Numbered from the stretch's first letter, positions 1 through 14,454 are shown. The stretch: DNA of 14,454 nucleotides from a virus (IMGVR_UViG_2778261009_000003:1-14454), one strand, 5' to 3'. Notes: generated by a model from the letters alone, not told the origin. Made by a program: numbers and translations.

Positions 1-128
1 GCTGGAAAGGCTGGGCCATACTCCTCCGGCAGAAGCAGAAAAAGCTTATTATGCTTCCATCGGAAACGATGATCTGGCAGCCTGAGTTCACAGATAAAAC
101 ACTCTCCAGGAAACCCGGGGCGGTTCAG
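1..128. repeat. Left copy of a perfect 128-bp inverted repeat (partner 14327..14454)
   Basis: Checked base by base: the reverse complement of 1..128 equals 14327..14454. The match stops at position 129 (g, where the partner strand would give t). This copy lies inside the HAD reading frame. Confidence 0.95.
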
Positions 129-548
129 GTGAAGTCGCTACGTGAAGCGGTTCATGAAGTGAATGGAATATGGAAATTTGCCCTTACAGATACTGATACA
201 GCTAAATTACAAAATTTCAATCAAACCGTTGAAGAAGAGCTTGGGCTTACATGCGAATGGTCGTGGCATGACCAAGTAGATATAGCACAAACCGGAAACA
301 GCAAAGGTAAACGATTGGCACAATGGGTTGAGTCTCAGGGTTTATCAATGAACCAAGTTATTGCTTTTGGGGATAACCATAACGATCTTAGTATGCTAAA
401 AAATGCTGGTCTTGGCGTGGCTATGGGTAATGCCGTAGATGAAGTGAAAGAATGTGCTGATTTAGTGATAGGAACTAACATGGAATCAGGAATTGCTGAG
501 ATAGTTAACAGATATTTTGATCATGTACCTGCACAAAATGTTTTATGA
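3..548 (+). CDS. Cof-type HAD-IIB family hydrolase (sugar-phosphatase-like), 5'-partial, runs off the window start
   Basis: Frame 3 is open from position 3 with no stop; stop codon at 546-548. The C-terminal motif VIAFGDNHNDLSMLKNAGLGVAMGNA matches the HAD motif III/IV region of Cof/YbiV-like phosphatases as I remember them. About 41% GC in a hand-counted 100-nt sample. Confidence 0.75.
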   Translation, partial: WKGWAILLRQKQKKLIMLPSETMIWQPEFTDKTLSRKPGAVQVKSLREAVHEVNGIWKFALTDTDTAKLQNFNQTVEEELGLTCEWSWHDQVDIAQTGNSKGKRLAQWVESQGLSMNQVIAFGDNHNDLSMLKNAGLGVAMGNAVDEVKECADLVIGTNMESGIAEIVNRYFDHVPAQNVL

Positions 549-575
549 TTTTGAAACTACTAGGAGAGTTGACCA

Positions 576-785
576 ATGACAGATGAACAATTTGAAAATA
601 ACTATCCAAGAGATCAATATAGCTACGTACGTAAGAGCTTTAGAACCAAAGGGACAATGGGACAAACAGAAATTGAAGTCTTTGATATTGTCACAAAAGG
701 TACTGGTGAAGTTGTGCTCACAGCGACACGAACAGAACATACTAATCTGCGTGGTTTAAACACTACAGTTAACTGGGATTGGTAA
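576..785 (+). CDS. Small hypothetical protein (69 aa), probably host-encoded
   Basis: ATG at 576 preceded by AGGAG (562-566) with 9-nt spacing; followed by a hairpin at 800-827. No family recognised. Confidence 0.55.
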   Translation: MTDEQFENNYPRDQYSYVRKSFRTKGTMGQTEIEVFDIVTKGTGEVVLTATRTEHTNLRGLNTTVNWDW

Positions 786-793
786 TGATTAGC

Positions 794-830
794 AAAAATA
801 AAGCCCGCTCAATTTACTGCGGGCTTTGTA
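794..830. terminator. Rho-independent terminator-like hairpin, probably bidirectional
   Basis: Stem aaagcccgc (800-808) pairs with gcgggcttt (819-827) around a 10-nt loop; A-run upstream on plus gives a U-tract on the minus strand. Sits where composition shifts from host-like to AT-rich. Confidence 0.5.
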
Positions 831-859
831 GATCATAAGATTATCTGAGAACTCTTGAA

Positions 860-889
860 TTCGACAATCTATTCATCGGTGATTAAAAT
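860..889 (+). promoter_or_regulatory. Candidate sigma70-like promoter (TTCGAC, 18-nt spacer, TAAAAT) that would give a near-leaderless transcript for the 897 ORF
   Basis: Hexamers read by eye at 860-865 and 884-889. No Shine-Dalgarno precedes ATG 897. Weak evidence. Confidence 0.2.
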
Positions 890-896
890 CTCTTAT

Positions 897-1601
897 ATGA
901 AAAAACATCATTTTAAAAAATTAGTTAAACAAATTAAATTTTCTCATATAGCTTGTTTAGCAGTCGGAATACTGATCCCGATATATATAGATGTCTTAGG
1001 TTTTCATGAATTTAATAGTTCTACTGTATCTGCCATTATGGATACAGTATTGGCAAGCATTGCTACTTATACACTATATAAAGTCAAAAATTGGTACAAT
1101 GAAAAGACACATACGAAAGGATTCGAACAAGCAAATAATTTTATTGTTCATTTATCCGATGCTAAATTAAAGTCAGAAAAAGTATTTGAGCACATAATGA
1201 ATATGTATTGCTATTTAGGCACCAAAAATTTGGGAAAAACAGACCCACATTATGAAAAACTCAATAATGAAATTGAGACATTATGGTTAGATTTTAAAAC
1301 TCATTTATCTGTGCTTTCTTCACAAAAAGACATATTAAAAGTTTGGGAAATCGAAATAAGACCAGATCAACGAGATGGCATAACCCAGTACATTAGTACT
1401 TTATATAAATTTTCAGAGCTTAGCCAAATGATGATCTTTTCATATAAAGATGTTAATGGCATGGCTCGTAAAAAATCATATGAGTTCAATCAAATTAGCT
1501 TCAATCAATGCTATGCCTTAACACAGATTCTATCTACATCTTGGATGAACACCTGGAGGTCATTATTTGTAATTACTAAGTCAACCACCCACCATGATTA
1601 A
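897..1601 (+). CDS. Hypothetical membrane protein with two predicted N-terminal TM helices and a roughly 170-aa soluble domain
   Basis: Long open frame in very AT-rich DNA (about 26% GC in sample 901-1000), where chance ORFs of this length are unlikely. The ORF track starts at TTG 855; ATG 897 (MKKHHFKKL) is preferred. Hydrophobic segments IACLAVGILIPIYIDVLGF and VSAIMDTVLASIATYTLY. Start uncertain. Confidence 0.5.
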   Translation: MKKHHFKKLVKQIKFSHIACLAVGILIPIYIDVLGFHEFNSSTVSAIMDTVLASIATYTLYKVKNWYNEKTHTKGFEQANNFIVHLSDAKLKSEKVFEHIMNMYCYLGTKNLGKTDPHYEKLNNEIETLWLDFKTHLSVLSSQKDILKVWEIEIRPDQRDGITQYISTLYKFSELSQMMIFSYKDVNGMARKKSYEFNQISFNQCYALTQILSTSWMNTWRSLFVITKSTTHHD

Positions 1602-1871
1602 AAGTATCTGTAGTAGCTCACCTAGTGGAATTTGTATTAATACAATACCAAACGCATCAAGAACAGGAACAATTATCCAATTATATAAAATGATTAGGGA
1701 AAGTACAAAACCAAGGAAGTTTCTCCAGTGAAAGGTGTTTTGCTCAATTTCAATTTTATTTGTCTCAATCTGTCCATCAGTGTTAGTTTTATGTTCCTCT
1801 TTTTCAATTATTTTTGTCTTTGTAAAAAGACTCATTATCGTACTAATTAATACGGAGATTGCATTTATCAT
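1581..1871 (-). CDS. Small membrane protein (96 aa) with a hydrophilic middle and two C-terminal TM helices
   Basis: ATG at 1871 with AAGGA 8 nt upstream; begins 12 nt after the stop of the upstream minus-strand ORF. Its 3' end overlaps the 3' end of the convergent 897..1601 ORF by 21 nt. Confidence 0.5.
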   Translation of the reverse strand: MINAISVLISTIMSLFTKTKIIEKEEHKTNTDGQIETNKIEIEQNTFHWRNFLGFVLSLIILYNWIIVPVLDAFGIVLIQIPLGELLQILLIMVGG

Positions 1872-1882
1872 ATTTCATTTCC

Positions 1883-2203
1883 TTATTGTAACTGGCATAC
1901 GACTGACCAAACGCGATGACCTTTGTAGACTTGATTAAAACATGACAGTACTGCTACTGTCTTATTATCACCAAGACATACGGTATCGAGTACATCACCA
2001 TCATTAACATTCGGAATATTGTTTAGATTGAAACTGAATACAATCAAATTCCCTTTACTCTTATCTACCTTCTTTTTAATTAACTTGCTACCCGAAAACA
2101 CTTTGTCATATGGCAAAGTAACACTTACAGGTTTGACGTTTTGAAATAGGAATTCATCCAGTACGGTATGGTCATAACAGGGATATTGATCAAGTATATT
2201 CAT
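1883..2203 (-). CDS. Hypothetical protein (106 aa if started at the internal Met; track ORF starts at 2215)
   Basis: Internal ATG at 2201-2203 is preceded by GGAG at about 6-nt spacing and overlaps the stop of the upstream ORF (TAATG). No family recognised. Confidence 0.45.
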   Translation of the reverse strand: MNILDQYPCYDHTVLDEFLFQNVKPVSVTLPYDKVFSGSKLIKKKVDKSKGNLIVFSFNLNNIPNVNDGDVLDTVCLGDNKTVAVLSCFNQVYKGHRVWSVVCQLQ

Positions 2204-2796
2204 TATTTTCTCCATTTATATTCGAATGTACCACTCATAGTTTGAAGTTGTCGTAATACCATTTTTTCGGTTGTGTCATAAAAATCAAATATTGGTTTTC
2301 TTCCAACACTTCCATAATAACCAATAACACGTTCCTTACTCGTTTTCGTCTTCTTGGTAGTGTCGATTAGATATGTCTTTCCAGACGTCTTACTCTTCAC
2401 TTTTTTATATTTATCGTTCTTACGCTTTGATTTAAGTTGACTTATATTACCCTGTTTTGTCTTCTTGGCGTTTTGGTATGGGATCGCTTTATATTCCTTA
2501 TTCCCTACATAATCAGGGTCAATAATATGCTTTAAGTATCTCGCCTGATTTCCCAGTACTATAATCTGGTTTACACTCTCAAATTCATTAAGCCGTTTAA
2601 AATTAAAGTACATCGCTCTACCCGTATATGGAATTACACCACCATCTACTTCCTGGTTAATTTTATGCTGTATCTGTTGGGTAACATTACGCATACGATT
2701 ACTTAGTTCTTTTTTGAAGTGTTTACCGATCTTTGGGGAATTTTTATTAACAAATTTTTTCATATCATCTGGTGAATGACCATTCTTCCATTTCAT
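2203..2796 (-). CDS. Lysine-rich basic protein (197 aa), putative DNA-binding partner with a NUMOD3-like N-terminal motif
   Basis: ATG overlaps the upstream stop as ATGA; GAGAGG RBS 6 nt upstream. N-terminus KNGHSPDDMKKF resembles the NUMOD3 motif of GIY-YIG homing endonucleases (from memory). Lys-rich tract KSKRKNDKYKKVKSKTSGK. Confidence 0.5.
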   Translation of the reverse strand: MKWKNGHSPDDMKKFVNKNSPKIGKHFKKELSNRMRNVTQQIQHKINQEVDGGVIPYTGRAMYFNFKRLNEFESVNQIIVLGNQARYLKHIIDPDYVGNKEYKAIPYQNAKKTKQGNISQLKSKRKNDKYKKVKSKTSGKTYLIDTTKKTKTSKERVIGYYGSVGRKPIFDFYDTTEKMVLRQLQTMSGTFEYKWRK

Positions 2797-3221
2797 GATA
2801 ACCTCTCTAATAATTGTTGCAGTACTTTGAATGTTTCAGAACGATTTTTACCAAGCCGTACTTTACACATCACGGCAAGATTCAAATTATTTGATTGCTG
2901 TCCTAAGAATAGAATCAACGCCGCTTCTACCTGCTCGGCTTCATTCGTCGTACTGAAACACCATAGTATTTGTTTTTCATAGTTCAGACCTGAATCGACC
3001 ATTGCCTGCACTTTCTTTGAGGAAGAATAATAATTCTCCCAGTTGGATTCCTTTGTAGTTGGCTTCAGCTTCTTTACATCCCGAATACCTTTGAAGATTG
3101 ACTTTACACCAAAATAATATGAACCATCGTCAAAAGTGATCATATATACAAAAGCTGCATACCTCCCGTCATTTATATCTTCATAATCCCATGTCTCAGG
3201 ATCATGCATTGTCCATTTCAT
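2793..3221 (-). CDS. GIY-YIG-like nuclease domain protein (about 142 aa from ATG 3221; track ORF starts at TTG 3236)
   Basis: Motif FVYMITFDDGSYYFG fits the GIY-(10 aa)-YIG spacing; Arg 8 residues after, then NEAEQVEAAL and SNNLNLA resemble the I-TevI Glu and Asn regions (from memory, not aligned). About 31% GC. Confidence 0.5.
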   Translation of the reverse strand: MKWTMHDPETWDYEDINDGRYAAFVYMITFDDGSYYFGVKSIFKGIRDVKKLKPTTKESNWENYYSSSKKVQAMVDSGLNYEKQILWCFSTTNEAEQVEAALILFLGQQSNNLNLAVMCKVRLGKNRSETFKVLQQLLERLS

Positions 3222-3257
3222 ATAAATACCCCACAAACAATAATTTATGAGGTATTT

Positions 3258-3704
3258 ATGTGTTTAAGAGAAAAATTAAAAGTATATGAAGGTACGAAAG
3301 AATACCAAGCCCATATGGGTTATTATCGCAATGGTAAATTCTGGGTGTATAAATGTAGTGAGAACAAAGATACGATTGGATATGGACATCTACTAAAAGC
3401 CTCTGAATCGTTCTCTAACGGCATTAACGAGGATGAAGCAGATAAACTACTGGATAAAGATATTGGCATTGCCAAACGTGATTTATCTACCTTAAATTTG
3501 AAATTACCACAGGACTGGGAAGACTTCATGGTTATTATGATTTTTCAGTTAGGCTTAGGTGGTACTAAGAAGTTTAAAAAGATGATCATTGCATTACAAA
3601 ACAATAATTATACAGAAGCAATTAAACAGGCAAAGGATAGTTTATGGTATCGTCAGACACCGAATAGACTTGACAAAATGATTAAAGATTTAATTAACAA
3701 ATAA
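3258..3704 (+). CDS. Phage lysozyme / endolysin, GH24 T4-lysozyme-like
   Basis: TIGYGHLL and SLWYRQTPNR closely parallel T4 lysozyme TIGIGHLL and SRWYNQTPNR. GAGG RBS 6 nt before ATG 3258 (track ORF starts at 3204, rejected). No signal peptide or SAR-like N-terminus. Confidence 0.8.
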   Translation: MCLREKLKVYEGTKEYQAHMGYYRNGKFWVYKCSENKDTIGYGHLLKASESFSNGINEDEADKLLDKDIGIAKRDLSTLNLKLPQDWEDFMVIMIFQLGLGGTKKFKKMIIALQNNNYTEAIKQAKDSLWYRQTPNRLDKMIKDLINK

Positions 3705-3735
3705 AAAAGGGGCATTAAGCCCCTTTTTATTTTTC
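3703..3735. terminator. Bidirectional rho-independent terminator between convergent genes
   Basis: A-run, GGGGC stem, ATTAA loop, GCCCC stem, T-run; lies between the lysozyme stop (3702-3704) and the 88-aa gene stop (3727-3729). Confidence 0.65.
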
Positions 3736-3993
3736 AAGTATCACAAGAATACGTGCAATATCTACTTCAAGTCGTCTGATTGATTCATCAACTGACTTAA
3801 GAGTAATCTTCATAGCTTCATGCTCACTTCGTAATGTAGTAACAGATTGTTCTACAAGTGCAAGTCGTGTTTCTACTGAGGCAAGACGTGCTTCTATTTC
3901 TGCATCATCAGTCTTATTATCACGAATGATAGTCCAGATTAATGCTACAAAAGTTAGAAAAACTGCAATCCCTGCAATTACCAATTCTACCAT
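3727..3993 (-). CDS. Small membrane-anchored coiled-coil protein (88 aa), possible lysis-associated (holin- or spanin-like) protein
   Basis: One N-terminal TM segment (LVIAGIAVFLTFVALIWTII) then a heptad-like charged helix. AAGGGA RBS upstream. No embedded lipoprotein ORF found in other frames, so not a classic Rz/Rz1 pair. Function is a guess. Confidence 0.45.
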   Translation of the reverse strand: MVELVIAGIAVFLTFVALIWTIIRDNKTDDAEIEARLASVETRLALVEQSVTTLRSEHEAMKITLKSVDESIRRLEVDIARILVILEK

Positions 3994-4055
3994 TCCCTTT
4001 AGTTCCCTTTTTAATTATTATAGGTAGTTTTTAGGCTACCCATATTTATTTAGTT

Positions 4056-7000
4056 TTAGTTACTAACGGGGTTCTCACCACTACGGAATAAGAAGAGATC
4101 AAGTCTGTCACCTGGTAGATTATTGTTTCCCTGATGTTCGCCTATATCCAGTCCACATGAACCACTACGGCCATCTGAAGCCATTACATATAGATAATTC
4201 ATCTTACCCCTACCTACAGCAGGAATTTGAATATTATCAATTTTATATGAAACTGGCGTATCTTCACCACCGGAACCTGCATCATAACCCCATAATAGAC
4301 GGTTTGCTATTCCATCCCCACCAACAAACACTTGAAAATAGTTCCACTTCCAGCATGTAAAATAAAAACTCATATTACTATTCAGAGTCCTTGCAAAGTC
4401 CTCCCCTTTAATACGCAATCCTACATATAGTCGACCTGGTTCTGGTCTATAGTTTTCTGGGAATTCTACCCCAGGAGGTGCCCATACGTTCCCCTGTCGA
4501 TTAACTCCAGTACTTTGAGGTCTGCACTGATCACCAACAATACGTGATGCATTAAGAGTACCAAGAATTGTACAGTCCTGGTTAATAGTAACATTATTCA
4601 TGGTTCCACTGGTTGCCTGAATATTACCCCGTACTGATACGTCCTGGAAGCTTGCCTTACCATTCTTATTGATCATCCAGCCTGTACTACCATTCCAGTT
4701 TGTAGATTGAATTTGCTGGGATATTTTTGCTGAGTCGATAACCCCGTTAACTATGTGTCCATTAAGGATTGAAGCATTGGCTATGCGAGCTGAGTCGATT
4801 GCTGCTATCTGAATTTTCGCACGCGAAACGGCAAGGTCATTTATCTGCCCTGTGTTTATACTCGCGTCTCCAATGACCGCACTATTGATATAAGTCTTAC
4901 CATTCTGAACTACAAACGGATATACCTTATCAGTCTGTTTAGCACTGTCAGTAGAAATAATACTGAAACGATCTGCCATTACCGTAAATGCTGAGTTTTT
5001 CCCGTCATTAGCAAGTGATACACCTGACACGTTGCCGTTATTCGTCACCTGAACCTGCCAGCGTGAACCAAGGTCATCAACAATATGTTTCTCAATAATG
5101 CCTGTGGCAACATCTGAATTCAGTAATTCATCTACAACATCATCATTTAGCTTTGAGTACGGAACTTTAGTATTCTGGTTAAAACCAATAGTTGGCGACC
5201 ATACTAATTCATCCTGTCCCATTACATCATATGCTGCAAGACGTCCGAACCACGATCCATCCTCTATCCCAAATGAAGCTGAGAAGCGGTTAGAAGAACT
5301 GAAATAGTGAACATCCGAACTAAAACCCTCATCCTTAGCACACTGGAACACTACACCAGAATAGTCTGGTACGTTTGATTCATCCCATTCTAAGAACACA
5401 TTATCATAGCCATTACGCAAACGTACACCAAGTAATTGGGGGTGCTGTGGGTTACTTACTTCAATCTGTACTTCTTCTGAATAAATTCCAGTACCGTGAC
5501 CGTGGGCAATAATACCAATTACACGATATCTGTTAAGTCCATCAGATTGATTCATTGCAAAGGTATATATCCAGTTAAAGTCCGTTGTAAAGTACGACTT
5601 AATATATGTACGATAACGGTCATACACACGAATTTCATAATATTTGAAAAAATCAGAGAATCGTTTTCCATTTACTGGCAAAGTACTTTGTTCATCCCAT
5701 CTGAATATAAAATCTTGTGAATAAGTCTGGTTCAATCCCATATTATCGTTAGTCATATCAAGATTAGTAATCTTTGGTAGGGCAAAAATCACCTGTGGAG
5801 TTTGATTATAAATTGCAACTAACTCAGATGAATAACCGAGAGTGTTATACGCCTCAATACCAAAATCATATTTAACACCGTGGATTAGATTCAGTATCTG
5901 AAACTCTGTGGTGTACTGTCCTACGTTACCAATCGAGATCCATGTATTCGAATCACTGCGTTTATATCTAATCTTATAACCCCGTACGCTTGAATCCTGG
6001 CTTAAATCCCATGTCATAAGCACGGCATTACCGTTAACGGTTGCACCAAGTTTCTGCACCTGCAAGTTTGATGGAGGTTCTACGTATGTCGCGTTTGGTA
6101 GATTTGTGATCCCGTCCTGTGGGAATCGTCCATGGTCTTTCCCCTGATATATGCCGTCCGCATAGGCTATAGCGGTAATCTGTACGACACCAGTCTTATC
6201 TACGGTCATCGGTACAGTACGTTGTATTACACGGAACTTATTATTAACAAATCCGGCTTCTTTGAAACTGAGTGTAAAAACATCGTAGACTGTGAGATCG
6301 GTAACGTATGTGTTAAAAGTTATACTATTAAGAACATACTTAGATTTTAATAGTTCGGTATTAGCCATTTTAGCAAGTTGTTTTTTGTCCTGAATCCATT
6401 TTAGATTAAGGTCTTTTTTAATGATTAAACCATCCCGTACCACTGTTTCATTTGTAAGCGTATCACTTGGATAACGAATAATATCTTCTGAGTAATCACC
6501 GCCTGGGTTTGTATAGGTCACATCGAATACGTTCGCATAATCCGTATTAGAACCAGTTGTGATATTCACAGTACCGAGAATGTTTTTTTCATCAAAATGA
6601 TATAGTGGGACATCGGCAGTATCTACGGTGAGATACATAATACCATTCGATTCATATATTACACCACCGAATGTAGACAAGATGCTTTCAAGGTTTTCTT
6701 TATATGACTTATCATAGGCAATAGCACCATTTGAATATAGTTCATTATTCTTACAGTACATTGCACAATTACGAAATGATGCAATATCAATATCATTAGG
6801 ATCAGTGTTGAAACCAAATTCATTATTTGTGATAAAGTCATATAACTGACTCGGTGGATTACTGGAGGGTTTACGAATGTTATCAGTAAGGTCATAAATT
6901 AGACGTCCTTTCATCTCCAATGAAAGTGCATAGTTTTGATTCACTAAAATACCATCAGTCAGACTACCATTAGTCTTACGGATAACCGAACAAACCTGTA

Positions 7001-7613
7001 CTAATCCATCACCACGCATTTCATCAGTCCAGCGAGATCCGCCATATTGCCGGGCAAGTGTCATAGAACCACCATAAGACGGCTTTCCAAAACGAATTTC
7101 GAGCTGGAGGAAGTTACGATACTTCTCACGCATAAGGGATGTAGAAACAATACCCTCACTGGTTATTTCGGCATCATCTAGTAAGATTGGACTGTTATCA
7201 AAGTATACCTGTTTAATTACGGCACCAGATTGTGCACCTGGAGCACGTCCGATCTCCCCGATACTAATAGCATGCACTGTGCATAGTTGGTTACTTTGTC
7301 CCTTATAGACGTTCTGCCATACGACAATGGAACCTACCTTAACAAATGATTCTTCGGTCAGGCTTCTATTAGTACCGCCATATACAATCGGTATCCCAGT
7401 ACTGGGTGAAGTACTTCGAGAGTTAACCGTTCCAGTACTGGGATAGTTTACCCCCTGATCTCCAACACGCATCATCTGGGAGGATGCAACATAGGATAAT
7501 GCTGCTACACCAACACCAATAGCGATAGATGCTGCAAGACCCACTGCTGCGTAAGCTGCGGCGGCGGCTGATGCACCTGCTATTACTGCTGTTAATACGG
7601 CTGCTACTGCCAT
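4056..7613 (-). CDS. Host specificity protein J-like central tail fibre / tail tip protein (1185 aa) with an N-terminal gpI-like hydrophobic extension
   Basis: C-terminal SGTMNNVTINQDCTILGTLNASRIVGD parallels lambda J SGTLSNVTIAENCTINGTLRAEKIVGD (from memory). FN3-like segment around KIRYKRSDSNTWISIG. GGAGGG RBS 7 nt upstream. About 46% GC. Confidence 0.85.
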   Translation of the reverse strand: MAVAAVLTAVIAGASAAAAAYAAVGLAASIAIGVGVAALSYVASSQMMRVGDQGVNYPSTGTVNSRSTSPSTGIPIVYGGTNRSLTEESFVKVGSIVVWQNVYKGQSNQLCTVHAISIGEIGRAPGAQSGAVIKQVYFDNSPILLDDAEITSEGIVSTSLMREKYRNFLQLEIRFGKPSYGGSMTLARQYGGSRWTDEMRGDGLVQVCSVIRKTNGSLTDGILVNQNYALSLEMKGRLIYDLTDNIRKPSSNPPSQLYDFITNNEFGFNTDPNDIDIASFRNCAMYCKNNELYSNGAIAYDKSYKENLESILSTFGGVIYESNGIMYLTVDTADVPLYHFDEKNILGTVNITTGSNTDYANVFDVTYTNPGGDYSEDIIRYPSDTLTNETVVRDGLIIKKDLNLKWIQDKKQLAKMANTELLKSKYVLNSITFNTYVTDLTVYDVFTLSFKEAGFVNNKFRVIQRTVPMTVDKTGVVQITAIAYADGIYQGKDHGRFPQDGITNLPNATYVEPPSNLQVQKLGATVNGNAVLMTWDLSQDSSVRGYKIRYKRSDSNTWISIGNVGQYTTEFQILNLIHGVKYDFGIEAYNTLGYSSELVAIYNQTPQVIFALPKITNLDMTNDNMGLNQTYSQDFIFRWDEQSTLPVNGKRFSDFFKYYEIRVYDRYRTYIKSYFTTDFNWIYTFAMNQSDGLNRYRVIGIIAHGHGTGIYSEEVQIEVSNPQHPQLLGVRLRNGYDNVFLEWDESNVPDYSGVVFQCAKDEGFSSDVHYFSSSNRFSASFGIEDGSWFGRLAAYDVMGQDELVWSPTIGFNQNTKVPYSKLNDDVVDELLNSDVATGIIEKHIVDDLGSRWQVQVTNNGNVSGVSLANDGKNSAFTVMADRFSIISTDSAKQTDKVYPFVVQNGKTYINSAVIGDASINTGQINDLAVSRAKIQIAAIDSARIANASILNGHIVNGVIDSAKISQQIQSTNWNGSTGWMINKNGKASFQDVSVRGNIQATSGTMNNVTINQDCTILGTLNASRIVGDQCRPQSTGVNRQGNVWAPPGVEFPENYRPEPGRLYVGLRIKGEDFARTLNSNMSFYFTCWKWNYFQVFVGGDGIANRLLWGYDAGSGGEDTPVSYKIDNIQIPAVGRGKMNYLYVMASDGRSGSCGLDIGEHQGNNNLPGDRLDLFLFRSGENPVSN

Positions 7614-7614
7614 G

Positions 7615-8004
7615 TTATTTCCCTCCGAATCTATAAATTTTATAATTGTTTTCTATTGGTTCATATTTCATTACTGTATAGACACCATCGATTAAAATGA
7701 TTACTTTACCTCTCCAGTACACAGTAGATTGGGAGCCAGTAATTAGGATATCCCCATCAAATGGTTCTACTTGTTTTATACCCAGATCATTACATAGGGC
7801 ATTTAGTGATTTATATGAACAATGTTCTTTTGCGTACTTTCGACCGCCAGTAGGTGACGTATATTTCTGATAGATTTCGTCCCTGTAATTTGTACCAAGA
7901 TGCATATCAATAACAGTCAGAGACATGATATGACAATCATTTTCACCGTATACAATTGGCTGACCGATTAGAGTACTAAGATATTCTGTAATAAATCCAT
8001 TCAT
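7615..8004 (-). CDS. Minor tail protein (129 aa), K-like position, partial NlpC/P60-like signature
   Basis: GQPIVYGENDC and GDILI resemble the NlpC/P60 G-x-P-Y-x-W-G-x-x-D-C-S-G and GDLVFF motifs, but no His follows. Start overlaps the upstream stop (TAATG). Confidence 0.45.
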   Translation of the reverse strand: MNGFITEYLSTLIGQPIVYGENDCHIMSLTVIDMHLGTNYRDEIYQKYTSPTGGRKYAKEHCSYKSLNALCNDLGIKQVEPFDGDILITGSQSTVYWRGKVIILIDGVYTVMKYEPIENNYKIYRFGGK

Positions 8005-8648
8005 TATTTTTTACTCGCTTGCCAAAACTGCTCTGAACTATTTAGTATTCCGATTAGATCAAAGAACTTATCACCCTTATGGGTTGATTGGTGAATTGAT
8101 GTACTTGATAGTAGACGTTGTGTCTGGTCTAATTTCTTCCATATGGAATTGAGATTAACAGTGGTTTCATTCTGTGTGTTAGTTCCATCTACAGAAAAAT
8201 CACTGCTAAAATAATCTATATATCCACTAAAAATACGATAACGGTAAAGAAGTGCACCTGTTGCAGGGTTAACGATCCCCATCCAGATATTAACTTTGGC
8301 ATCTTTCCACAATCCTCTTAAAGCAAGGGAAAGATAATCCTGGCTTACGTTACTAATCTTAAACGTAGTACCGGTATTATTGATCTGATTCTTTTCTACA
8401 TAGTTCGCAAAGGATGAATCAATTAGATCTGGAATTGGTTTATATACAATGCCATTGATATTCTGTTCTACTACTGCATCAGTAAGGTATAGATTACTTC
8501 CTGTAGGAGGTAATAGATCAATCAGTTTTACCATGATTCCACACTGGTATAATTCCCTTTCTGTAAGAACTGACTTATTATCACCCCGCATTAGATTCCA
8601 GTACTTTACTAATTCTGGGTTACTTAGTACATTGTTTGGAATTGCCAT
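8004..8648 (-). CDS. Minor tail protein (214 aa), L-like position
   Basis: Translationally coupled within the tail operon; AAGGGG RBS upstream. Assigned by position only; lacks the Cys cluster of lambda L. Confidence 0.45.
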   Translation of the reverse strand: MAIPNNVLSNPELVKYWNLMRGDNKSVLTERELYQCGIMVKLIDLLPPTGSNLYLTDAVVEQNINGIVYKPIPDLIDSSFANYVEKNQINNTGTTFKISNVSQDYLSLALRGLWKDAKVNIWMGIVNPATGALLYRYRIFSGYIDYFSSDFSVDGTNTQNETTVNLNSIWKKLDQTQRLLSSTSIHQSTHKGDKFFDLIGILNSSEQFWQASKK

Positions 8649-8649
8649 A

Positions 8650-9204
8650 TTATCCCCTTATATTCTCTGTTGCCGTAATTGTCATTTCAATAATATTCGT
8701 ACTTGGTAAGTCATATGTAGAGTTAGCAGGTGTAAGAATAAAAGAACCCATTAGATTATCGTATTTTACTGTTTCCCCTATCTGGATATTTCGGATCAGT
8801 CCTGGGTAGATATTCAGAGTCGTTCCACTACGGGCAATAACACGATAGAGTTTTTTGTGTCCTGAGAATTGAATTAAATCACCTGGGGAAAGGTTATTAG
8901 TATTGGTCTGAATAGATGTAGCCCCGGCTGTACGGGCTGCTGTTACCTGTACACCTGTCGCCTGATTACCTGAATAATCACCCCACCAACCAAGAGACAT
9001 ATCAAAAGGTCTGCCATTGGAATAGAGTGCAAGAAAGTTTGTTAAATCGGTTCTGTATTTTTTACTTGTTGTAACCTTAAAACTTATGCTGAAGTACTGT
9101 GTTCCGACAATACGGGTAATTACCTCACCAGACCATGTTTTGTTTTGGTATTGGGGGATATTATCAGAAAGTACAAAATCACTTATTAGAGAGTTATTAA
9201 ACAT
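8650..9204 (-). CDS. Minor tail protein (184 aa), M-like / distal tail position directly after the tape measure
   Basis: Position and AAGGA RBS. No diagnostic motif. Confidence 0.45.
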   Translation of the reverse strand: MFNNSLISDFVLSDNIPQYQNKTWSGEVITRIVGTQYFSISFKVTTSKKYRTDLTNFLALYSNGRPFDMSLGWWGDYSGNQATGVQVTAARTAGATSIQTNTNNLSPGDLIQFSGHKKLYRVIARSGTTLNIYPGLIRNIQIGETVKYDNLMGSFILTPANSTYDLPSTNIIEMTITATENIRG

Positions 9205-9219
9205 ATATTTTCCTTATAA

Positions 9220-9237
9220 AGCCCACATGAATGTGGG
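9220..9237 (-). other. Intergenic hairpin between tape-measure stop and next gene start
   Basis: gcccaca / tgaa / tgtgggc, 7-bp perfect stem; followed on the minus strand by a short U-run and then the RBS. Confidence 0.3.
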
Positions 9238-9251
9238 CATACTGTATTTAC

Positions 9252-11513
9252 TTAGACGTTCCTCTGTTGGCTTTTACGTACTGCCTGGGTGATAGTATCG
9301 GCGTGTTTATCACACATACTCTGGAATTTTGAATCTGTGAGTTCTCCGGCACCCTGAATAATTAAAGGGGCATCAATTTTAATATCACCACCTTTATCAC
9401 TCCCCTTATTATTCAAGTACTGTGTTAAGTCCTGGTTCAGAGATTTACCTACAACACGTTCACCTTTTTCAAGATTATATGTACCAGTCTTCGGTAGTGA
9501 GTCCCAACCATCATGTGCCTGACCTTCAATCTTTGTACCCTTAATCGTACTGACAATATTGGCACCTTCGGCTGCAACCTTAATACCCGCAGCGATGCCT
9601 GTAGGCCAGCCAAGCTTCATAGCCTCAGAAATACCCTGCTGAATATTGATAATAGACTGGGCAACTGCGATCCCTTTGCTCATTGCAAATGCAGCTTTTG
9701 CCATAGCATTACTTTCACCAAATACACCTGCAAGAGTAGTACCGAGATCCTGAGCACCCGTTGCATACATAGAAAGTGTCTTTTGCTGGGCATCAATATT
9801 AGCCTGACTCATTTTGTCTGTAGTAGATTGTTGAATTGCTACCATGCGATCTTGGTAATCCTGATAACTTAATAACTTCTGTTCATACAGACTTTGATTC
9901 AGTGCTAATTCGGCCTGTCCTTCTGTTGCTAATGTATCGAGCGTGTTCTGATCGGCACTCATATTTAATGGATCTTGATTAAGTCCCATACGTTCGTTTT
10001 GACCTGCCAGTACTGAATTAAGGTCTTTTCCTGACATAGAACCACCAATTGCCGAAATATTCTGGGCAAGTTTAAGTGGATCACTTTCAGTGAGCATTGA
10101 ATTAACCATTTCTTTATACAGGCGTTTACGTGAATCAGTCTGCTTTCTTAATAGTTCAGTCTTTTCAGCTTCAGTTTTACCAAGAGTATCTGCACTTATT
10201 TTAATGCGTTGTTCTATTTCATCCTGGGTCTTATTAAATTGTTGTAGCTGTAGGGCAGCACCATTACCTGCAATACCATTCATAGTCTGTTCCAGTACTT
10301 TGGCAGCCTGGATACGATCCTTTGCGGCCTTATCACTGGCTTTTTTCGCTTCTTCCCCTGCTTTACCATCATCGAAGTTAGAACGCTCTTTTGTCGTTCC
10401 TGTATATGCCTTTGTAGTTGGTTTATAGTCTTCCTGTGAATATTCACGGGCAAAGGCAGCAAGACCACCAATACCTGGTCCAAGTGGTGAAAAAACTGCA
10501 TCGGCTGCTGTCTGTACGTGTTTACGTCCTTTTGCTATTTGCTCGGGTGTAAACTCGGGTAATTCAAGGCCAATCTTTGATCCTAAATTACGGATCATGT
10601 CATAGAATTTAACGACCTGATCGTATAACGACTGTATGATCGTGTTTTTTGAATCCCAGTTAAAGAATGAATTAATAAACTCAACTGCTTTTGTTTTGAG
10701 GTTGTCAAACCATTGATATATTTCCTTACAGGCTTTTACGAGTCCATTAAAAATATCAATGAGGGGTGTAACAATTTCAAATGCAAGAGTTTTCAGTCCG
10801 TTACCAAGACCTGAAGTATTCTGACTTAACAGATCAAATGTTTTTGCCTGTTCATTAGTCATTGCTACGTTCTGGGCTGCAAGAGAGTTATTAAATTCAA
10901 TCTCACTATTAAAAGAGTTGAATGTAGGTATTAGTTTTGCAGCATCACCACCGAGAGCATTAATCATGTTTGTAATTTCGGCAAGATTTGCACCATTCTT
11001 TTTCATCTCAAAAAAGACTTTTGACAATGCCTGTAAACCACCATCAGCCTGTTTTAATGTTGGTATTAGGCTCTTTACATCTACGCCGAATGTTTTCAAG
11101 TCACCGCCAACGCCAGAACCGTCCGCAGACGCAATACCAAGTTGATCCATCACTGCTTCGTTAATCGAACCAACTTCTTCCATAGATAATCCTATGGTTT
11201 TGAATGCCCCTGACCACTGCTGGAGTTGCTCGGCACTTAGTCCGGTTGTGCGTGTCAATGCGTTGATGTCGTTTGCAAGTCCAATTGTATATGTGGTCAG
11301 TGCTGTAATAGCTGTAATTGCCATTGTTGCCGCATTACCAACACCACCAAGACCAGTTGCCATTGAACTTAGGCCACCACTAATACCACCAAATACACTA
11401 CCAGCACGATCACCAAAGTCGGCAAGTCCATTGCCAGCACTTTTTAAAGATTTTTGTAACCCAGATTCATCACCTGTGATTTCAAAAATCATCTGTTGTT
11501 TATTCCCTGCCAT
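9252..11513 (-). CDS. Tail tape measure protein (753 aa)
   Basis: Large Ala/Gly/Gln-rich ORF with low-complexity helical stretches, immediately downstream of the G/GT chaperone pair; its ATG lies 1 nt after the T-frame stop. Confidence 0.85.
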   Translation of the reverse strand: MAGNKQQMIFEITGDESGLQKSLKSAGNGLADFGDRAGSVFGGISGGLSSMATGLGGVGNAATMAITAITALTTYTIGLANDINALTRTTGLSAEQLQQWSGAFKTIGLSMEEVGSINEAVMDQLGIASADGSGVGGDLKTFGVDVKSLIPTLKQADGGLQALSKVFFEMKKNGANLAEITNMINALGGDAAKLIPTFNSFNSEIEFNNSLAAQNVAMTNEQAKTFDLLSQNTSGLGNGLKTLAFEIVTPLIDIFNGLVKACKEIYQWFDNLKTKAVEFINSFFNWDSKNTIIQSLYDQVVKFYDMIRNLGSKIGLELPEFTPEQIAKGRKHVQTAADAVFSPLGPGIGGLAAFAREYSQEDYKPTTKAYTGTTKERSNFDDGKAGEEAKKASDKAAKDRIQAAKVLEQTMNGIAGNGAALQLQQFNKTQDEIEQRIKISADTLGKTEAEKTELLRKQTDSRKRLYKEMVNSMLTESDPLKLAQNISAIGGSMSGKDLNSVLAGQNERMGLNQDPLNMSADQNTLDTLATEGQAELALNQSLYEQKLLSYQDYQDRMVAIQQSTTDKMSQANIDAQQKTLSMYATGAQDLGTTLAGVFGESNAMAKAAFAMSKGIAVAQSIINIQQGISEAMKLGWPTGIAAGIKVAAEGANIVSTIKGTKIEGQAHDGWDSLPKTGTYNLEKGERVVGKSLNQDLTQYLNNKGSDKGGDIKIDAPLIIQGAGELTDSKFQSMCDKHADTITQAVRKSQQRNV

Positions 11514-11514
11514 A

Positions 11515-11835
11515 TTATTTTCTTCCCATCCAGTTTAACATGTTTGCTCTCTGTTCTTCGGCGATCCGTTTCTCTCTCTCTTCGGCTTGTTCTTTAATGG
11601 TCTTATTGTTGATGATATTAAGAGAGTCCAATTCTGTGATACTGAATTTCTTTAAGTCTTCCTTCTTAATATTCCCAGTACTGAGCCATATAGCCTGGAG
11701 TATTTCGGTATGTCTTACCTGTTCAATTCGGGAAGAATTTGGTTCTACAAAAGTGTCATATACAAATAGATAGATAAAAAGCGAAAAGGGCATGGTGCAG
11801 AGATCTTCCACACCACACCCTTTTGTCATCAGCAT
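11515..11835 (-). CDS. Tail assembly chaperone T segment, probably expressed as a G-T fusion via -1 frameshift
   Basis: This ORF is in the -1 frame relative to G. Its frame is open upstream to a TGA three codons before the G stop, so it overlaps the slippery site. Confidence 0.6.
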   Translation of the reverse strand: MLMTKGCGVEDLCTMPFSLFIYLFVYDTFVEPNSSRIEQVRHTEILQAIWLSTGNIKKEDLKKFSITELDSLNIINNKTIKEQAEEREKRIAEEQRANMLNWMGRK

Positions 11836-11867
11836 TTTTAGAGAAAGTTTAAGAAACGGATCGCCTC

Positions 11868-12158
11868 TTACTTTTTTTCAATTTCTTCAATATTCATAGC
11901 TTCGGTAAAAATACGCGTGATTTCGGTATTAAGTTTGATTTGATAAACCATGTCAATTTCGCTTTCTACCTGTTCTGGTGATTTAAAAAGTTGTTTGCCA
12001 TCGACATCAACTACACAGTAATGAATTGTAGTGTACGGGTCACTACATTCACTATACTTAGAAATAGCTGGAAGACGAATATAAACAGTAAACCCCGGAG
12101 CAAGTTCAAAGGCATGTTTTTTGACACCAATTGCTGTCATTAGATTAGATAGATCCAT
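11868..12158 (-). CDS. Tail assembly chaperone G-like (96 aa)
   Basis: Small acidic protein between tube and tape measure; ends ...EIEKK* with slippery heptamer A-AAA-AAG directly before the stop. Confidence 0.65.
   Translation of the reverse strand: MDLSNLMTAIGVKKHAFELAPGFTVYIRLPAISKYSECSDPYTTIHYCVVDVDGKQLFKSPEQVESEIDMVYQIKLNTEITRIFTEAMNIEEIEKK
11871..11877 (-). other. Programmed -1 ribosomal frameshift slippery heptamer A_AAA_AAG (G/GT)
   Basis: Minus-strand aaaaaag (plus-strand ctttttt at 11871-11877) in the zero-frame register gaA AAA AAG TAA. Same heptamer as the E. coli dnaX shift site. Confidence 0.6.
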
Positions 12159-12190
12159 GTGTATTTTTTCCTTATTATGATTATTTTATA

Positions 12191-12667
12191 TTATGGTTTT
12201 GCTGCGATTTCACCAACTGCTACAGGTTGTCCCGTAATTGTCATGACGAATTCACGTGTCGCGACAGAATCAAAATCCCCACCGACAACATCAGAACTGA
12301 TATAGCCATTAACTACAGAGTAATAACCCGCACCATCGGTATCAGCGATGTTTTCGTAATAGGTTACTTTTACCTGCATAAGCGTCTGTTTTTGAGCTGC
12401 GGTAACTAACATCTCCTGTCCTACTGCCCCTGGTTTCCAGTTCACAGATAGGGTTAGATCGGGTACAGAACGAGAACCTAATAGCTTCTGTGCGTACTGC
12501 TTACCAAATGTATTTACTGAAATGATTGTACTCTCGGCACCTGCTGCTGATGGGAAAGCTGCAACTTCTTCAATTACTGTATAAGTGGTTGCCTGACCAC
12601 CACCTGCTGGTGCTTCTGCAATTTCTACTACAACGTTATTCGCTGCGAAAATTCGATTAAAAGCCAT
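12191..12667 (-). CDS. Major tail (tube) protein (158 aa)
   Basis: Size and position directly upstream of G/GT and tape measure; AAGGA RBS 8 nt upstream. No motif-level confirmation. Confidence 0.65.
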   Translation of the reverse strand: MAFNRIFAANNVVVEIAEAPAGGGQATTYTVIEEVAAFPSAAGAESTIISVNTFGKQYAQKLLGSRSVPDLTLSVNWKPGAVGQEMLVTAAQKQTLMQVKVTYYENIADTDGAGYYSVVNGYISSDVVGGDFDSVATREFVMTITGQPVAVGEIAAKP

Positions 12668-12688
12668 TTTAATTTCCTTATTTAATTA

Positions 12689-12707
12689 GGGTAACGTCCT
12701 GTTACCC
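12689..12707 (-). other. Intergenic hairpin upstream of the tube gene
   Basis: gggtaac / gtcct / gttaccc, 7-bp perfect stem, between the 533-aa ORF stop (12718-12720) and tube start (12667). Confidence 0.3.
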
Positions 12708-12717
12708 GTTTCCTTTT

Positions 12718-14319
12718 TTATTTATGAAGATTGTAGTACTGCACATATAGCCCCAATCCGCGTAAAAGTTCACCCGAATAGAAACTAAAGAACATACTAT
12801 TGTTTTCGGCAGTTGTTTCATTACCTGTTCTGATTGACGCAGGCCATGTACCATTCATTACATGATTTGGTGAAATAACTGCATAGTTAAGTTGTATTTC
12901 ATCAAATAGTAATTGAATTAGCTCATGGTCTGGATATCCGGCGATAGCCATCATGCATGCCCCTGCTAACCATAGACCTGACATATGAGGGGTAAAGCCA
13001 TCATATTCTACAGAACCATTATCCCTAAAATAGGTAGGAGCTTTACCGACATTATTTTTCATGAACCATTTTAGATAGTTCATCCAGTTCTGACAGAAAG
13101 ATATTAGTTTAGGAGGTATTACAGTACTGTCTTGTCGTGACCATAATTCATGTACTGCATCACACCCACCAAAGAAAGCCCTTGGTTCGTATCCACTCCA
13201 TGCTTCGGCGTACCAGTGCTGCATTATGAATTGATCTGGTTTACCATCAGGAGCATATGCTAAAGCGTCCTGTCTGTTCCATACGAAAGCCTGTGCACAT
13301 GGTCCTGGTAAAGATGGTTTAAATTTATTTTTAAACCATGCCTGAGAATCATATAGAAAATTGATACTGTTATTTAAGCGAGTATGATCTATTTCTGTTC
13401 CTTTAAAGCACCAGATCGCCGGTAGTTGATAACCAGGATACGGTAGACCACGCCAGCCAGAATATAACTGGGCATAGGGATCGGTAATGTTAGAGAACGG
13501 AATTAAACCGGGAGTATACGCAAGACTATCTAACATATAATCTTTAATAGTACAGTCACCTAATCGTGCTGTGTATCCATTACCAGTTGTGTCGTTAAAC
13601 GTAAGCAGTACTGTGACCGAATAATCACCTGTCCCAGCATCTGTATACATCGCAGGCAAATCATTAATACAATACCAGTCAATCTTTCCATTCACACCAT
13701 TTACTGGATCTGTATCAAGTAGCAGTGTGAAAGATTCACGGTTCGTTAGTACTGGGCTTGCTGGAATTGGATCTGGTTGAATCCATTCTCCTGGGTTATC
13801 TGGATCTTCAATTTCGGGGTGATCTGGTTGATAACCGTTTAGTTTGAAGTCAGCAATAGTAAAAGTCTTTGTAACCCATTCACCATTTGTTGCAGGGAGC
13901 ATAGCCCACCAACGCCATTTATTATCATCACTTATACGAAAGTTAAAATCATCATCATATGAACGATAGGTAAAAGACTGAATATTGGCAGTCTCTGGTG
14001 TGAATATCCAAAACCCCACCACCTGTCCCCCGTCACCATCCATTGTTGTAGACACGACGTTATCGTAATACTTCCCAAGTACTCCACTCTGATATTCAAA
14101 GTTTGTTACCGTGTTATCTCCATAATCGGCAATCATACGTAGATCGGCAGTCATATAATTAGAGCCATCTGGTTTCATCACACGTGTGAAACGATTCATA
14201 GGAATGTCCATTGTAGTAATAGATCCATCTGGATTAGTCATTGGTAAGCCACACCGATAATCAATTGCACCCTCTTCTGTCTTTGTTTTATTCACTGTGA
14301 CTTCAGCAGATACTGACAT
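12718..14319 (-). CDS. Large hypothetical protein (533 aa), Trp/Tyr/Asn/Asp-rich, enzyme-like; possibly 5'-truncated at the inverted-repeat junction
   Basis: 1.6-kb open frame. The only start is ATG 14319, 7 nt inside the junction, with no Shine-Dalgarno; the frame is open upstream into the repeat until a stop. Not recognisable as capsid, portal, terminase or sheath. Confidence 0.55.
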   Translation of the reverse strand: MSVSAEVTVNKTKTEEGAIDYRCGLPMTNPDGSITTMDIPMNRFTRVMKPDGSNYMTADLRMIADYGDNTVTNFEYQSGVLGKYYDNVVSTTMDGDGGQVVGFWIFTPETANIQSFTYRSYDDDFNFRISDDNKWRWWAMLPATNGEWVTKTFTIADFKLNGYQPDHPEIEDPDNPGEWIQPDPIPASPVLTNRESFTLLLDTDPVNGVNGKIDWYCINDLPAMYTDAGTGDYSVTVLLTFNDTTGNGYTARLGDCTIKDYMLDSLAYTPGLIPFSNITDPYAQLYSGWRGLPYPGYQLPAIWCFKGTEIDHTRLNNSINFLYDSQAWFKNKFKPSLPGPCAQAFVWNRQDALAYAPDGKPDQFIMQHWYAEAWSGYEPRAFFGGCDAVHELWSRQDSTVIPPKLISFCQNWMNYLKWFMKNNVGKAPTYFRDNGSVEYDGFTPHMSGLWLAGACMMAIAGYPDHELIQLLFDEIQLNYAVISPNHVMNGTWPASIRTGNETTAENNSMFFSFYSGELLRGLGLYVQYYNLHK

Positions 14320-14326
14320 TGCAGTA

Positions 14327-14454
14327 CTGAACCGCCCCGGGTTTCCTGGAGAGTGTTTTATCTGTGAACTCAGGCTGCCAGATCATCGTTTCCGATGGAA
14401 GCATAATAAGCTTTTTCTGCTTCTGCCGGAGGAGTATGGCCCAGCCTTTCCAGC
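14327..14454. repeat. Right copy of the perfect 128-bp inverted repeat (partner 1..128)
   Basis: Exact reverse complement of 1..128; an inverted duplicate of HAD-gene coding sequence fused to the 5' side of the 533-aa ORF. Confidence 0.95.

Follow-up and report, generated by a model that had tools for sequence, protein, structure and literature searches.

A conserved late-region block and a variable cargo slot in the AT-rich end of an enterobacterial prophage

The stretch of viral DNA catalogued as IMGVR_UViG_2778261009_000003:1-14454 (14,454 nucleotides, hereafter "the window") carries, at positions 850-3250, an AT-rich segment with five open reading frames (ORFs), which an initial annotation had regarded as a single accessory island. 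The evidence gathered here suggests that this segment very probably comprises two different things in one prophage, i.e., the conserved end of the tail-and-lysis region (1581-3236) and a cargo slot next to the attachment site (786-1601), the HAD-family gene beyond the slot being phage cargo as well. In essence, the finding is the end of the late region and the moron slot of an uncharacterised prophage lineage; the island claim, as it was stated, is an ordinary one, and the spare copy of the host gene ybhA is the most interesting by-product. The five ORFs themselves (96-234 amino acids, aa) were borne out and agree with the RefSeq annotation of the identical sequence in Escherichia coli FDN-9.

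The chromosomes of two E. coli strains from chicken, FDN-9 and FDN-24, match positions 126-14329 of the window with 100% identity, and that of E. coli N61 is 97% identical over 1584-14329. These three are the only carriers among 5,426 complete E. coli genomes; a search of plasmid sequences with the window returned no match, and the matches in phage records were confined to the ends of the insertion sequence (IS) IS629. In FDN-9, the sequence forms part of a 34.4-kb prophage with a guanine-cytosine (GC) content of 38.5% residing in a chromosome with 52% GC. The prophage is a siphovirus-type, AT-rich element of Enterobacteriaceae.

The block at the end of the tail-and-lysis region

The four genes at 1581-3236 recur, in one and the same order, in related prophages of seven genera (Escherichia, Enterobacter, Klebsiella, Cronobacter, Pantoea, Citrobacter and Salmonella). 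This order comprises the gene of the tail-tip protein J followed by those of a membrane/coiled-coil protein (87-95 aa), endolysin, a GIY-YIG nuclease, a protein of 186-203 aa, a protein of 106-111 aa and a holin-like protein of 96-100 aa, the last four (the block) being present in every relative of the seven genera. The block-bearing loci include those of E. coli N61, the IMG/VR sequence L005, Enterobacter L008-L013 (E. hormaechei), Klebsiella aerogenes L010, Pantoea L016 (P. eucalypti), a second E. coli lineage (L017/18), Cronobacter L019/20, Citrobacter L025 (C. freundii) and Salmonella L027; the C. freundii locus breaks off within the endolysin gene, and neither J nor the gene of the 87-95-aa protein was seen in it. 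Identity to the window proteins amounts to 40-68% for the block vs. 54-82% for the tail proteins, suggesting that the block has diverged together with the tail genes. Conservation of the gene set as a core across related phages, the very observation that the initial annotation had named as speaking against an island, was thus found for four of the five ORFs.

Based on this synteny, the block, which is encoded on the minus strand, would represent the promoter-distal end of the tail-and-lysis region, inherited vertically with the tail genes, J, an 88-aa membrane/coiled-coil protein and an inverted endolysin gene being placed directly upstream of it. The initial annotation held that none of the five ORFs was a recognisable structural or lysis gene; this did not stand for two of them, i.e., for the holin-like gene and for that of the GIY-YIG nuclease.

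The holin-like protein of the window matches PF11351 (GTA_holin_3TM) with an E-value of 0.0013 and phrog_2024 with 2.7e-7; PF11351 is also matched by six of its eight homologues (E up to 0.1, the best being 8.9e-6). Two clear hydrophobic helices in the C-terminal part and a weaker one in the N-terminal part can be read from its sequence, the endolysin gene is situated 1.4 kb away, and the holin-like gene is kept in all relatives examined. Together with the endolysin, this protein would carry out the lysis of the host cell.

The match of the nuclease to PF19835 (SegE_GIY-YIG) reaches 61.5 bits (cutoff 25, E 1.2e-16). All of eight homologues keep the residues Tyr26, Tyr36, Gly38, Glu99 and Asn114, which correspond in the alignment to Tyr6, Tyr17, Gly19, Glu75 and Asn90 of I-TevI, the sequence of which was checked against the PDB entries 1LN0/1MK0; the equivalent of I-TevI Arg27 is ambiguous, with a Lys or an Arg nearby. 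A single-sequence PDB match of the protein to a metallo-beta-lactamase was discarded as spurious.

The family to which this gene belongs is rich in selfish homing endonucleases, and the best phage matches are annotated as homing endonucleases of T4-like phages. With the catalytic residues intact, the gene could therefore be conceived of as a selfish, free-standing homing endonuclease that has inserted itself into the lysis region; in that case, the three remaining genes of the block would be ordinary lysis or accessory genes. Such an origin appears rather unlikely: the gene occupies the same position in every close relative across the seven genera (41-56% identity), a pattern of vertical rather than sporadic inheritance. 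Moreover, within its 142 aa no DNA-binding domain is recognisable with Pfam beyond the catalytic domain, and the same slot in distant relatives harbors an unrelated nuclease, suggesting that it is the nuclease function that has been selected.

The distant relatives are informative in this respect. In L007, with a J protein of 32% identity, the order is J, a 101-aa protein, a T4-type endonuclease VII (EndoVII) with a SAP domain, a holin-like protein, a 178-aa protein (30% identical to the 197-aa protein of the window) and a 106-aa protein, followed by a serine recombinase; phage DCP80 features a J-like protein, EndoVII and proteins of 183 and 99 aa. Homologues of the 106-aa protein are present in both. 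The nuclease slot upstream of the pair of 197-aa and 106-aa genes is filled by GIY-YIG in the lineage of the window and by the T4-type EndoVII in two distant lineages, L007 (15121-15600) and L015 (8247-8714). This alternation looks like a non-orthologous replacement of the nuclease beside two conserved partners. A scan of GTDB genomes with the J protein yielded a single marginal locus, L004, which was uninformative.

Since the nuclease alternates while both partner genes stay, the trio of nuclease, 197-aa and 106-aa proteins is suggested to act on DNA late in infection, e.g., by removing branched DNA or DNA of the host ahead of packaging or in its course; this role would be deduced from gene neighborhood. 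In any case, the block defines an uncharacterised prophage lineage hallmarked by the conserved trio.

The partners of the nuclease are less tractable. For the 106-aa protein, no annotation was found in sequence and profile searches against Pfam, PHROG, NCBIfam or PDB. The very basic 197-aa protein belongs to a small phage-specific family comprising 87 clusters at 90% identity, all annotated as "hypothetical", with 35 representatives among 1.84 billion proteins. A tblastn search with this protein in 50,697 phage records gave no match, and according to INPHARED its gene occurs in no cultured phage. Eight of the 21 members of the family match phrog_1924, annotated as "minor tail protein" (the best E-value being 3.1e-21), as does the homologue from L007 (2.4e-6).

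Accordingly, the 197-aa and 106-aa proteins may be viewed as minor virion (tail) components encoded after J, the block being then structural and lytic with no part in DNA processing. The phrog_1924 matches are in line with this possibility, as is the position of the genes after J in three lineages. We consider it doubtful, although it deserves attention: the phrog_1924 member of phage RcCronus is encoded at the genome end after primase genes and not among tail genes, no experimental basis for the name of phrog_1924 was found, the 197-aa protein of the window itself matches no PHROG family, and the two genes always adjoin a nuclease.

As a separate observation, a protein sharing the C-terminus of the 197-aa family, P0087 (annotated as "terminase small subunit"), was considered as a clue to packaging and rejected, being a deletion fusion of the small terminase and 197-aa genes in the remnant of a decayed Enterobacter prophage. 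A widespread 202-aa protein with this annotation was located in Enterobacter roggenkampii (L023, 6001-6609), where the N-terminus of the small terminase is joined to a C-terminus of the 197-aa family; the deletion that created it took out the whole set of structural genes from a degenerate prophage integrated at mdtG. The same fusion identifies orf185 of FDN-9 (L001, 39901-40458) as the small terminase.

A number of points weigh against the interpretation of the block as a lysis and late DNA-processing unit continuous with the tail genes. The PF11351 score of the holin-like protein of the window, 19.6 bits, is below the gathering score of 24.8. The AlphaFold2 model of the 197-aa protein, built from a 21-sequence alignment, attained a predicted local distance difference test (pLDDT) score of 46, too poor for a fold search, and neither sequence nor profile searches revealed a relative of this protein in PDB or Pfam; its sole named link, phrog_1924, would favour a role in the virion over one on DNA. 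The abundance of selfish elements in the family of the nuclease, discussed above, belongs here as well. The pooled codon usage of the block is slightly farther from that of the structural genes than that of random codon samples (p about 0.009). In addition, the terminator-like hairpin at 3704-3728 lies between the J operon and the block, which may therefore be a transcription unit of its own. Finally, a search of 500-4100 revealed no ORF with a lipobox, hence no candidate for an o-spanin, which leaves the lysis set apparently incomplete.

As to the neighboring genes, the endolysin gene is antisense to the flanking late genes, and this inversion is kept in the relatives from E. coli, Enterobacter, Klebsiella, Pantoea, Cronobacter and Citrobacter; in the Salmonella relative, the endolysin gene is co-oriented with the late genes (L027, 7924-8376). 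A promoter of the block may reside inside the antisense endolysin gene, where candidate consensus sites are present. The homologues of the 88-aa protein were flagged, weakly, as DUF2730 in K. aerogenes, Pantoea and the second E. coli lineage. The only Rfam match, a sub-threshold one of the terminator-like hairpin to sraA, was taken as chance. Three plus-strand copies of the motif CTTATTATCAC are present, inside 17-nt near-repeats at 1956-1972, 3908-3924 and 8569-8585, possibly by chance in AT-rich DNA.

Base composition of the segment

The hand-counted GC values of the initial annotation, 26% at 901-1000 and 31% at 2401-2500, were exact. The dip itself is real as well (32.8% GC at 850-3250 vs. 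39.6% in the tail genes at 4056-14329), but its end had been misplaced at 3250: the maximum-likelihood changepoints fall at 824 and 4066. The AT-rich segment delimited in this way, the best-supported one (log-likelihood ratio 19.2), also takes in the endolysin gene and that of the 88-aa protein and ends at the stop codon of J. The reference values for the flanks fared differently: about 41% GC for the HAD gene was confirmed (41.6% over 51-548), but the 46% quoted for the J gene was not, its overall GC being 40.4% with only local 100-nt windows reaching 50%.

The composition at synonymous sites tells a different story from that of the bulk GC. The GC at third codon positions is 0.306 in the five ORFs vs. 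0.283 in the other 26 prophage genes (Mann-Whitney p = 0.31), whereas at second codon positions it is 0.286 vs. 0.352 (p = 0.006). The amino acids Phe, Tyr, Met, Ile, Asn and Lys (FYMINK) together make up a fraction of 0.38 vs. 0.31. Because the third positions are flat while the second positions and the amino-acid make-up differ, the dip stems from small proteins rich in Lys, Asn and Ile and not from a foreign origin. Across the prophage, the GC of individual genes ranges from 30 to 44% and is correlated with the FYMINK fraction (r = -0.76); the main compositional break is that between the host chromosome and the prophage as a whole. An Enterobacter relative in a host with 57.7% GC displays the same pattern: 41% in the HAD gene, 31% in the orf234 homologue, 33.8% in the block and 40.7% in J. 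As the segment matches a stretch of small non-structural genes, with the pattern recurring in this relative, the dip reflects the class of the genes.

Codon usage, expressed as a z-score vs. the rest of the prophage, is 0.42 for the 106-aa gene, 0.64 for the holin-like gene, 1.75 for the 197-aa gene and 1.86 for the GIY-YIG gene (1.85 for J). The only outlier among the five ORFs is orf234, with a z-score of 3.85, which makes it the second most deviant gene of the prophage. Taken together, the sliding-window and codon-usage analyses recommended by the initial annotation show that the GC of the island is not lowered at synonymous sites and that the codon usage of its four block genes is phage-typical. 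The search for defence systems, recommended likewise, was negative: PADLOC (PADLOC-DB 2.0) detected no defence system among the island proteins; below that level, it gave just two signals, one from the generic "HEase" model with the GIY-YIG protein (3e-6) and one, marginal, from PDC-M01A (0.003).

In view of these results, it is very improbable that 850-3250 in its entirety represents an AT-rich moron or defence/anti-defence island, acquired separately and inserted between host DNA and the tail/lysis module. The dip in bulk GC, the small size and mostly missing annotation of the proteins, the weak "HEase" match, the terminator between the segment and the J operon, and the slight deviation of the pooled codon usage could be cited in its favor. 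They are outweighed by the syntenic core of four genes in seven genera, co-diverged with the tail genes, by the phage-typical third positions and per-gene codon usage, by the extension of the dip over the endolysin gene to 4066, and by the lack of a detected defence system; in addition, the flank is not host DNA (see below).

The opposite view, according to which the dip is noise in a heterogeneous phage genome and marks nothing, can draw on other 300-nt windows of the tail region, which fall to 32-34% GC, and on the spread of per-gene GC tracking amino-acid composition. It is quite improbable nonetheless, as 824-4066 is the best-supported changepoint segment, corresponds to a run of small non-structural genes and recurs in the relative. 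In a wider context, a dip in the bulk GC of a phage does not necessarily signal foreign cargo; the third codon positions and the synteny in relatives tell a dip driven by amino acids from a true island.

Cargo slot, phage-borne ybhA copy and integration

The notion of separately acquired moron or defence cargo held for one of the five ORFs, orf234, which resides in a variable slot and deviates in codon usage, but not for the other four with their syntenic order and phage-typical codons; "moron-like cargo" is a fair description of orf234 alone. The slot, on the plus strand, would be a cargo site holding orf234. Its protein is predicted to begin with a membrane hairpin of two helices, in which Ser, His, Tyr, Asp and Thr residues are invariant, and to continue as a variable bundle of four helices. 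Fold matches were dismissed as a clue to function: they were limited to generic four-helix bundles, chemoreceptor ligand-binding domains appearing at E 0.015 or weaker, from which no function follows. The best match to uncharacterised viral proteins in the fold search was 5.6e-6.

The content of the slot between the holin gene and the attachment site varies among otherwise related prophages. An orf234-like gene occupies it in E. coli and Enterobacter, and in Cronobacter a further 131-aa gene is added to it; Enterobacter L008 has DUF3800, a homologue of orf69 and a gene resembling methyltransferases, Pantoea has AbiGi along with others, Citrobacter has six unrelated genes, and Salmonella has nothing. 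In K. aerogenes, L005 and N61, unrelated ORFs of 342, 320 and 225 aa, respectively, are found there. Overall, orf234 is replaced or absent in N61, L005, L008, L010, L016, L025 and L027. At the same time, several relatives integrated in ybhA carry it (about 42% identity) together with the HAD gene, which makes it more than a one-off insertion. The 225-aa ORF of N61 was considered as a possible copy of a disrupted host gene (e.g., yggS) and rejected, since it has no Pfam match and both yggS and yggR are intact.

The gene orf234 is probably expressed from the prophage. The presence of AbiGi and DUF3800 in the slot of relatives makes it a reasonable candidate for phage exclusion, by guilt by association only; a guess would be a role of the protein in superinfection exclusion or defence, exerted at the membrane. 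The real accessory hotspot of the lineage is the short slot from the holin gene to the attachment site. On a related note, in the N61 prophage (L002, 38975-40257) genes for SLATT and SMODS-nucleotidyltransferase proteins, resembling a cyclic-oligonucleotide-based antiphage signaling system (CBASS), adjoin the small terminase gene, where FDN-9 has different genes; apparently, a second variable slot of the lineage lies here, with defence cargo in it.

Between the HAD gene and the slot, orf69 gave no family match in Pfam, PHROG or NCBIfam. Its homologue in Enterobacter L008, a prophage integrated elsewhere, adjoins the DUF3800 cargo near the attachment site, and orf69 is absent from other ybhA-integrating relatives, in which the HAD gene and the orf234 homologue are 27 bp apart. 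The gene is small and mobile.

The initial annotation had treated the HAD gene as a part of the host flank. The borders of the FDN-9 prophage, which lie in ybhA, place it inside the prophage, and the HAD gene and orf69 are phage cargo. In FDN-9, the HAD gene is intact (280 aa) and starts 147 bp inside the left attachment site (attL). Its product is 62% identical to E. coli YbhA and scores 473.3 bits (cutoff 274) over residues 1-269 with the NCBIfam YbhA equivalog model NF007821; the gene has 40% GC vs. 50-51% in the host gene and a phage-typical codon usage (z 1.06).

The 5' remnant of ybhA in FDN-9 ends with ...CCNGTYL and the 3' remnant starts with YDYHAKTV..., so the remnants rejoin as ...CCNGTYL|YDYH.... 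The 3' remnant is adjoined by a gene for a 604-aa serine recombinase (annotated as "recombinase family protein"), weakly similar to XisF. E. coli and Enterobacter share one and the same attL junction, CACCTATTTG. As indicated by these junctions, the prophage integrates inside ybhA by means of a putative large serine recombinase; the spare copy and the split target were noted at 126-548 of the window, in L001 (14204-15423) and in L003 (6772-9236). The layout of pgl, 5' remnant of ybhA and full-length HAD gene was encountered also in Enterobacter, the second E. coli lineage, Cronobacter and Salmonella; Citrobacter exhibits the same layout of the HAD gene, but no ybhA remnant was called there. 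The HAD gene is present in every ybhA-inserted relative seen, across six genera, with proteins 73-93% identical, whereas the N61 relative, which lacks the HAD gene, is situated between yggS and yggR, both of them intact.

The phage YbhA equivalog, presumably expressed from the prophage, most likely substitutes for the host ybhA, which would be split by the serine recombinase at integration. If the phage copy is functional, it constitutes a tidy case of a phage compensating for the gene it disrupted. A literature search for ybhA-integrating phages, or for phages carrying a copy of the gene they disrupt, returned nothing relevant. One can go further and suppose a widespread enterobacterial phage lineage integrating into ybhA, whose long-resident YbhA equivalog near attL swaps rather than knocks out the host pyridoxal-phosphate phosphatase, orf234, often apparently co-transcribed with the HAD gene, being a new prophage-expressed exclusion or defence factor; as a whole, this supposition is tentative, with chances somewhat below even.

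The window itself differs from FDN-9 at its termini. Positions 1-128 and 14327-14454 form a perfect inverted repeat with 128-nt arms (100% complementary), and both represent the same end of IS629/IS1203. The IS copy at the far end interrupts a structural gene of 952 aa, which is intact in FDN-9. With the same IS end at both sides, the window resembles a short-read contig bounded by IS copies, and the copy of the prophage it came from is probably defective or rearranged. The features of the analysed region are collected in Table 1.

Table 1. Features in and around the AT-rich segment (positions in the window; strand "." denotes both strands)
Feature	Position	Strand	Evidence or remark
End of IS629/IS1203 (IS3 family)	1..125	+	Matches IS629/IS1203 ends with 97-99% identity; truncates the HAD gene of the phage
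3' part (141 codons) of the phage-borne full-length YbhA homologue (pyridoxal phosphatase, HAD-IIB)	126..548	+	Cut by IS629 at 126
orf69, small conserved phage gene near the attachment site	576..785	+	67% identical homologue in Enterobacter L008
Stable hairpin after orf69, possible terminator with a weak U tract	798..829	+	-19.4 kcal/mol, z -4.7
Sigma-70-like promoter match upstream of orf234	861..889	+	TCGACA-17-TAAAAT, 10/12 positions; consensus match only
orf234, membrane-anchored protein (prediction), variable cargo slot	897..1601	+	Family alignment; AlphaFold2 pLDDT 81; codon-usage z 3.85
Holin-like membrane protein, 96 aa, last gene of the conserved block	1581..1871	-	PF11351 (sub-threshold), phrog_2024
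Conserved protein, 106 aa, always adjoining the 197-aa gene	1883..2203	-	57-59% identity in other genera
Very basic protein, 197 aa, small phage-specific family	2203..2796	-	Distant link to phrog_1924 "minor tail protein"
Stand-alone GIY-YIG nuclease domain, 142 aa, SegE type	2793..3221	-	PF19835
Endolysin (phage lysozyme)	3258..3704	+	PF00959; phrog_13211, 1e-37
Bidirectional hairpin resembling an intrinsic terminator, between the endolysin and 88-aa genes	3704..3728	.	-15.3 and -16.4 kcal/mol on the two strands
Protein of 88 aa, N-terminal transmembrane helix and coiled coil	3727..3993	-	Weak DUF2730, XhlA and Rz-like (spanin-like) signals
Tail-tip (J-like) protein, anchor gene of the conserved synteny	4056..7613	-	Phage_Tail_Tip, 3e-24; 70-72% identity in other genera

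Comparison with known systems

Morons, or accessory genes proximal to the attachment site, were defined for lambdoid phages such as HK97 and HK022. Like these, orf234 is a single gene on the strand opposite to that of the late genes, preceded by a hairpin and a promoter-like site, with a deviant codon usage and with the slot content differing between otherwise syntenic relatives. Unlike in the case of morons, the other four ORFs are a conserved core, and orf234 recurs in several relatives.

The lysis genes partially resemble the cassettes of GTA_holin_3TM and lysozyme: at the late-region end, a small multi-helix, PF11351-like membrane protein and a PF00959 endolysin are encoded close to each other. 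The differences are the three non-lysis genes between the holin-like and endolysin genes, the location of the endolysin gene on the opposite strand, and the absence of a spanin candidate among the ORFs found.

The nuclease of the window shares the GIY-YIG core with conserved Tyr, Tyr, Glu and Asn residues with T4 SegE, I-TevI and T4 endonuclease II, and the EndoVII+SAP protein in the same slot of distant relatives is akin to T4 gp49, endonuclease VII. In contrast to I-TevI and SegE, the window protein is devoid of a recognisable DNA-binding domain and its distribution across genera is vertical, not sporadic. T4 endonuclease II, consisting of 136 aa, is closer to it in size.

Integration with the splitting of a gene by large serine recombinases is exemplified by SPbeta in spsM and by the phiC31 and Bxb1 types, and the elements repairing their target are represented by phage 21 and e14 at icd and by SXT at prfC. 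The prophage described here is similar to the gene-splitting phages in possessing a 604-aa recombinase at its end and a precise insertion inside the protein-coding ybhA. It differs from the systems named above in that the target is neither left broken nor given a replacement end; instead, the prophage brings along a complete, diverged YbhA equivalog with a phage-like codon usage.

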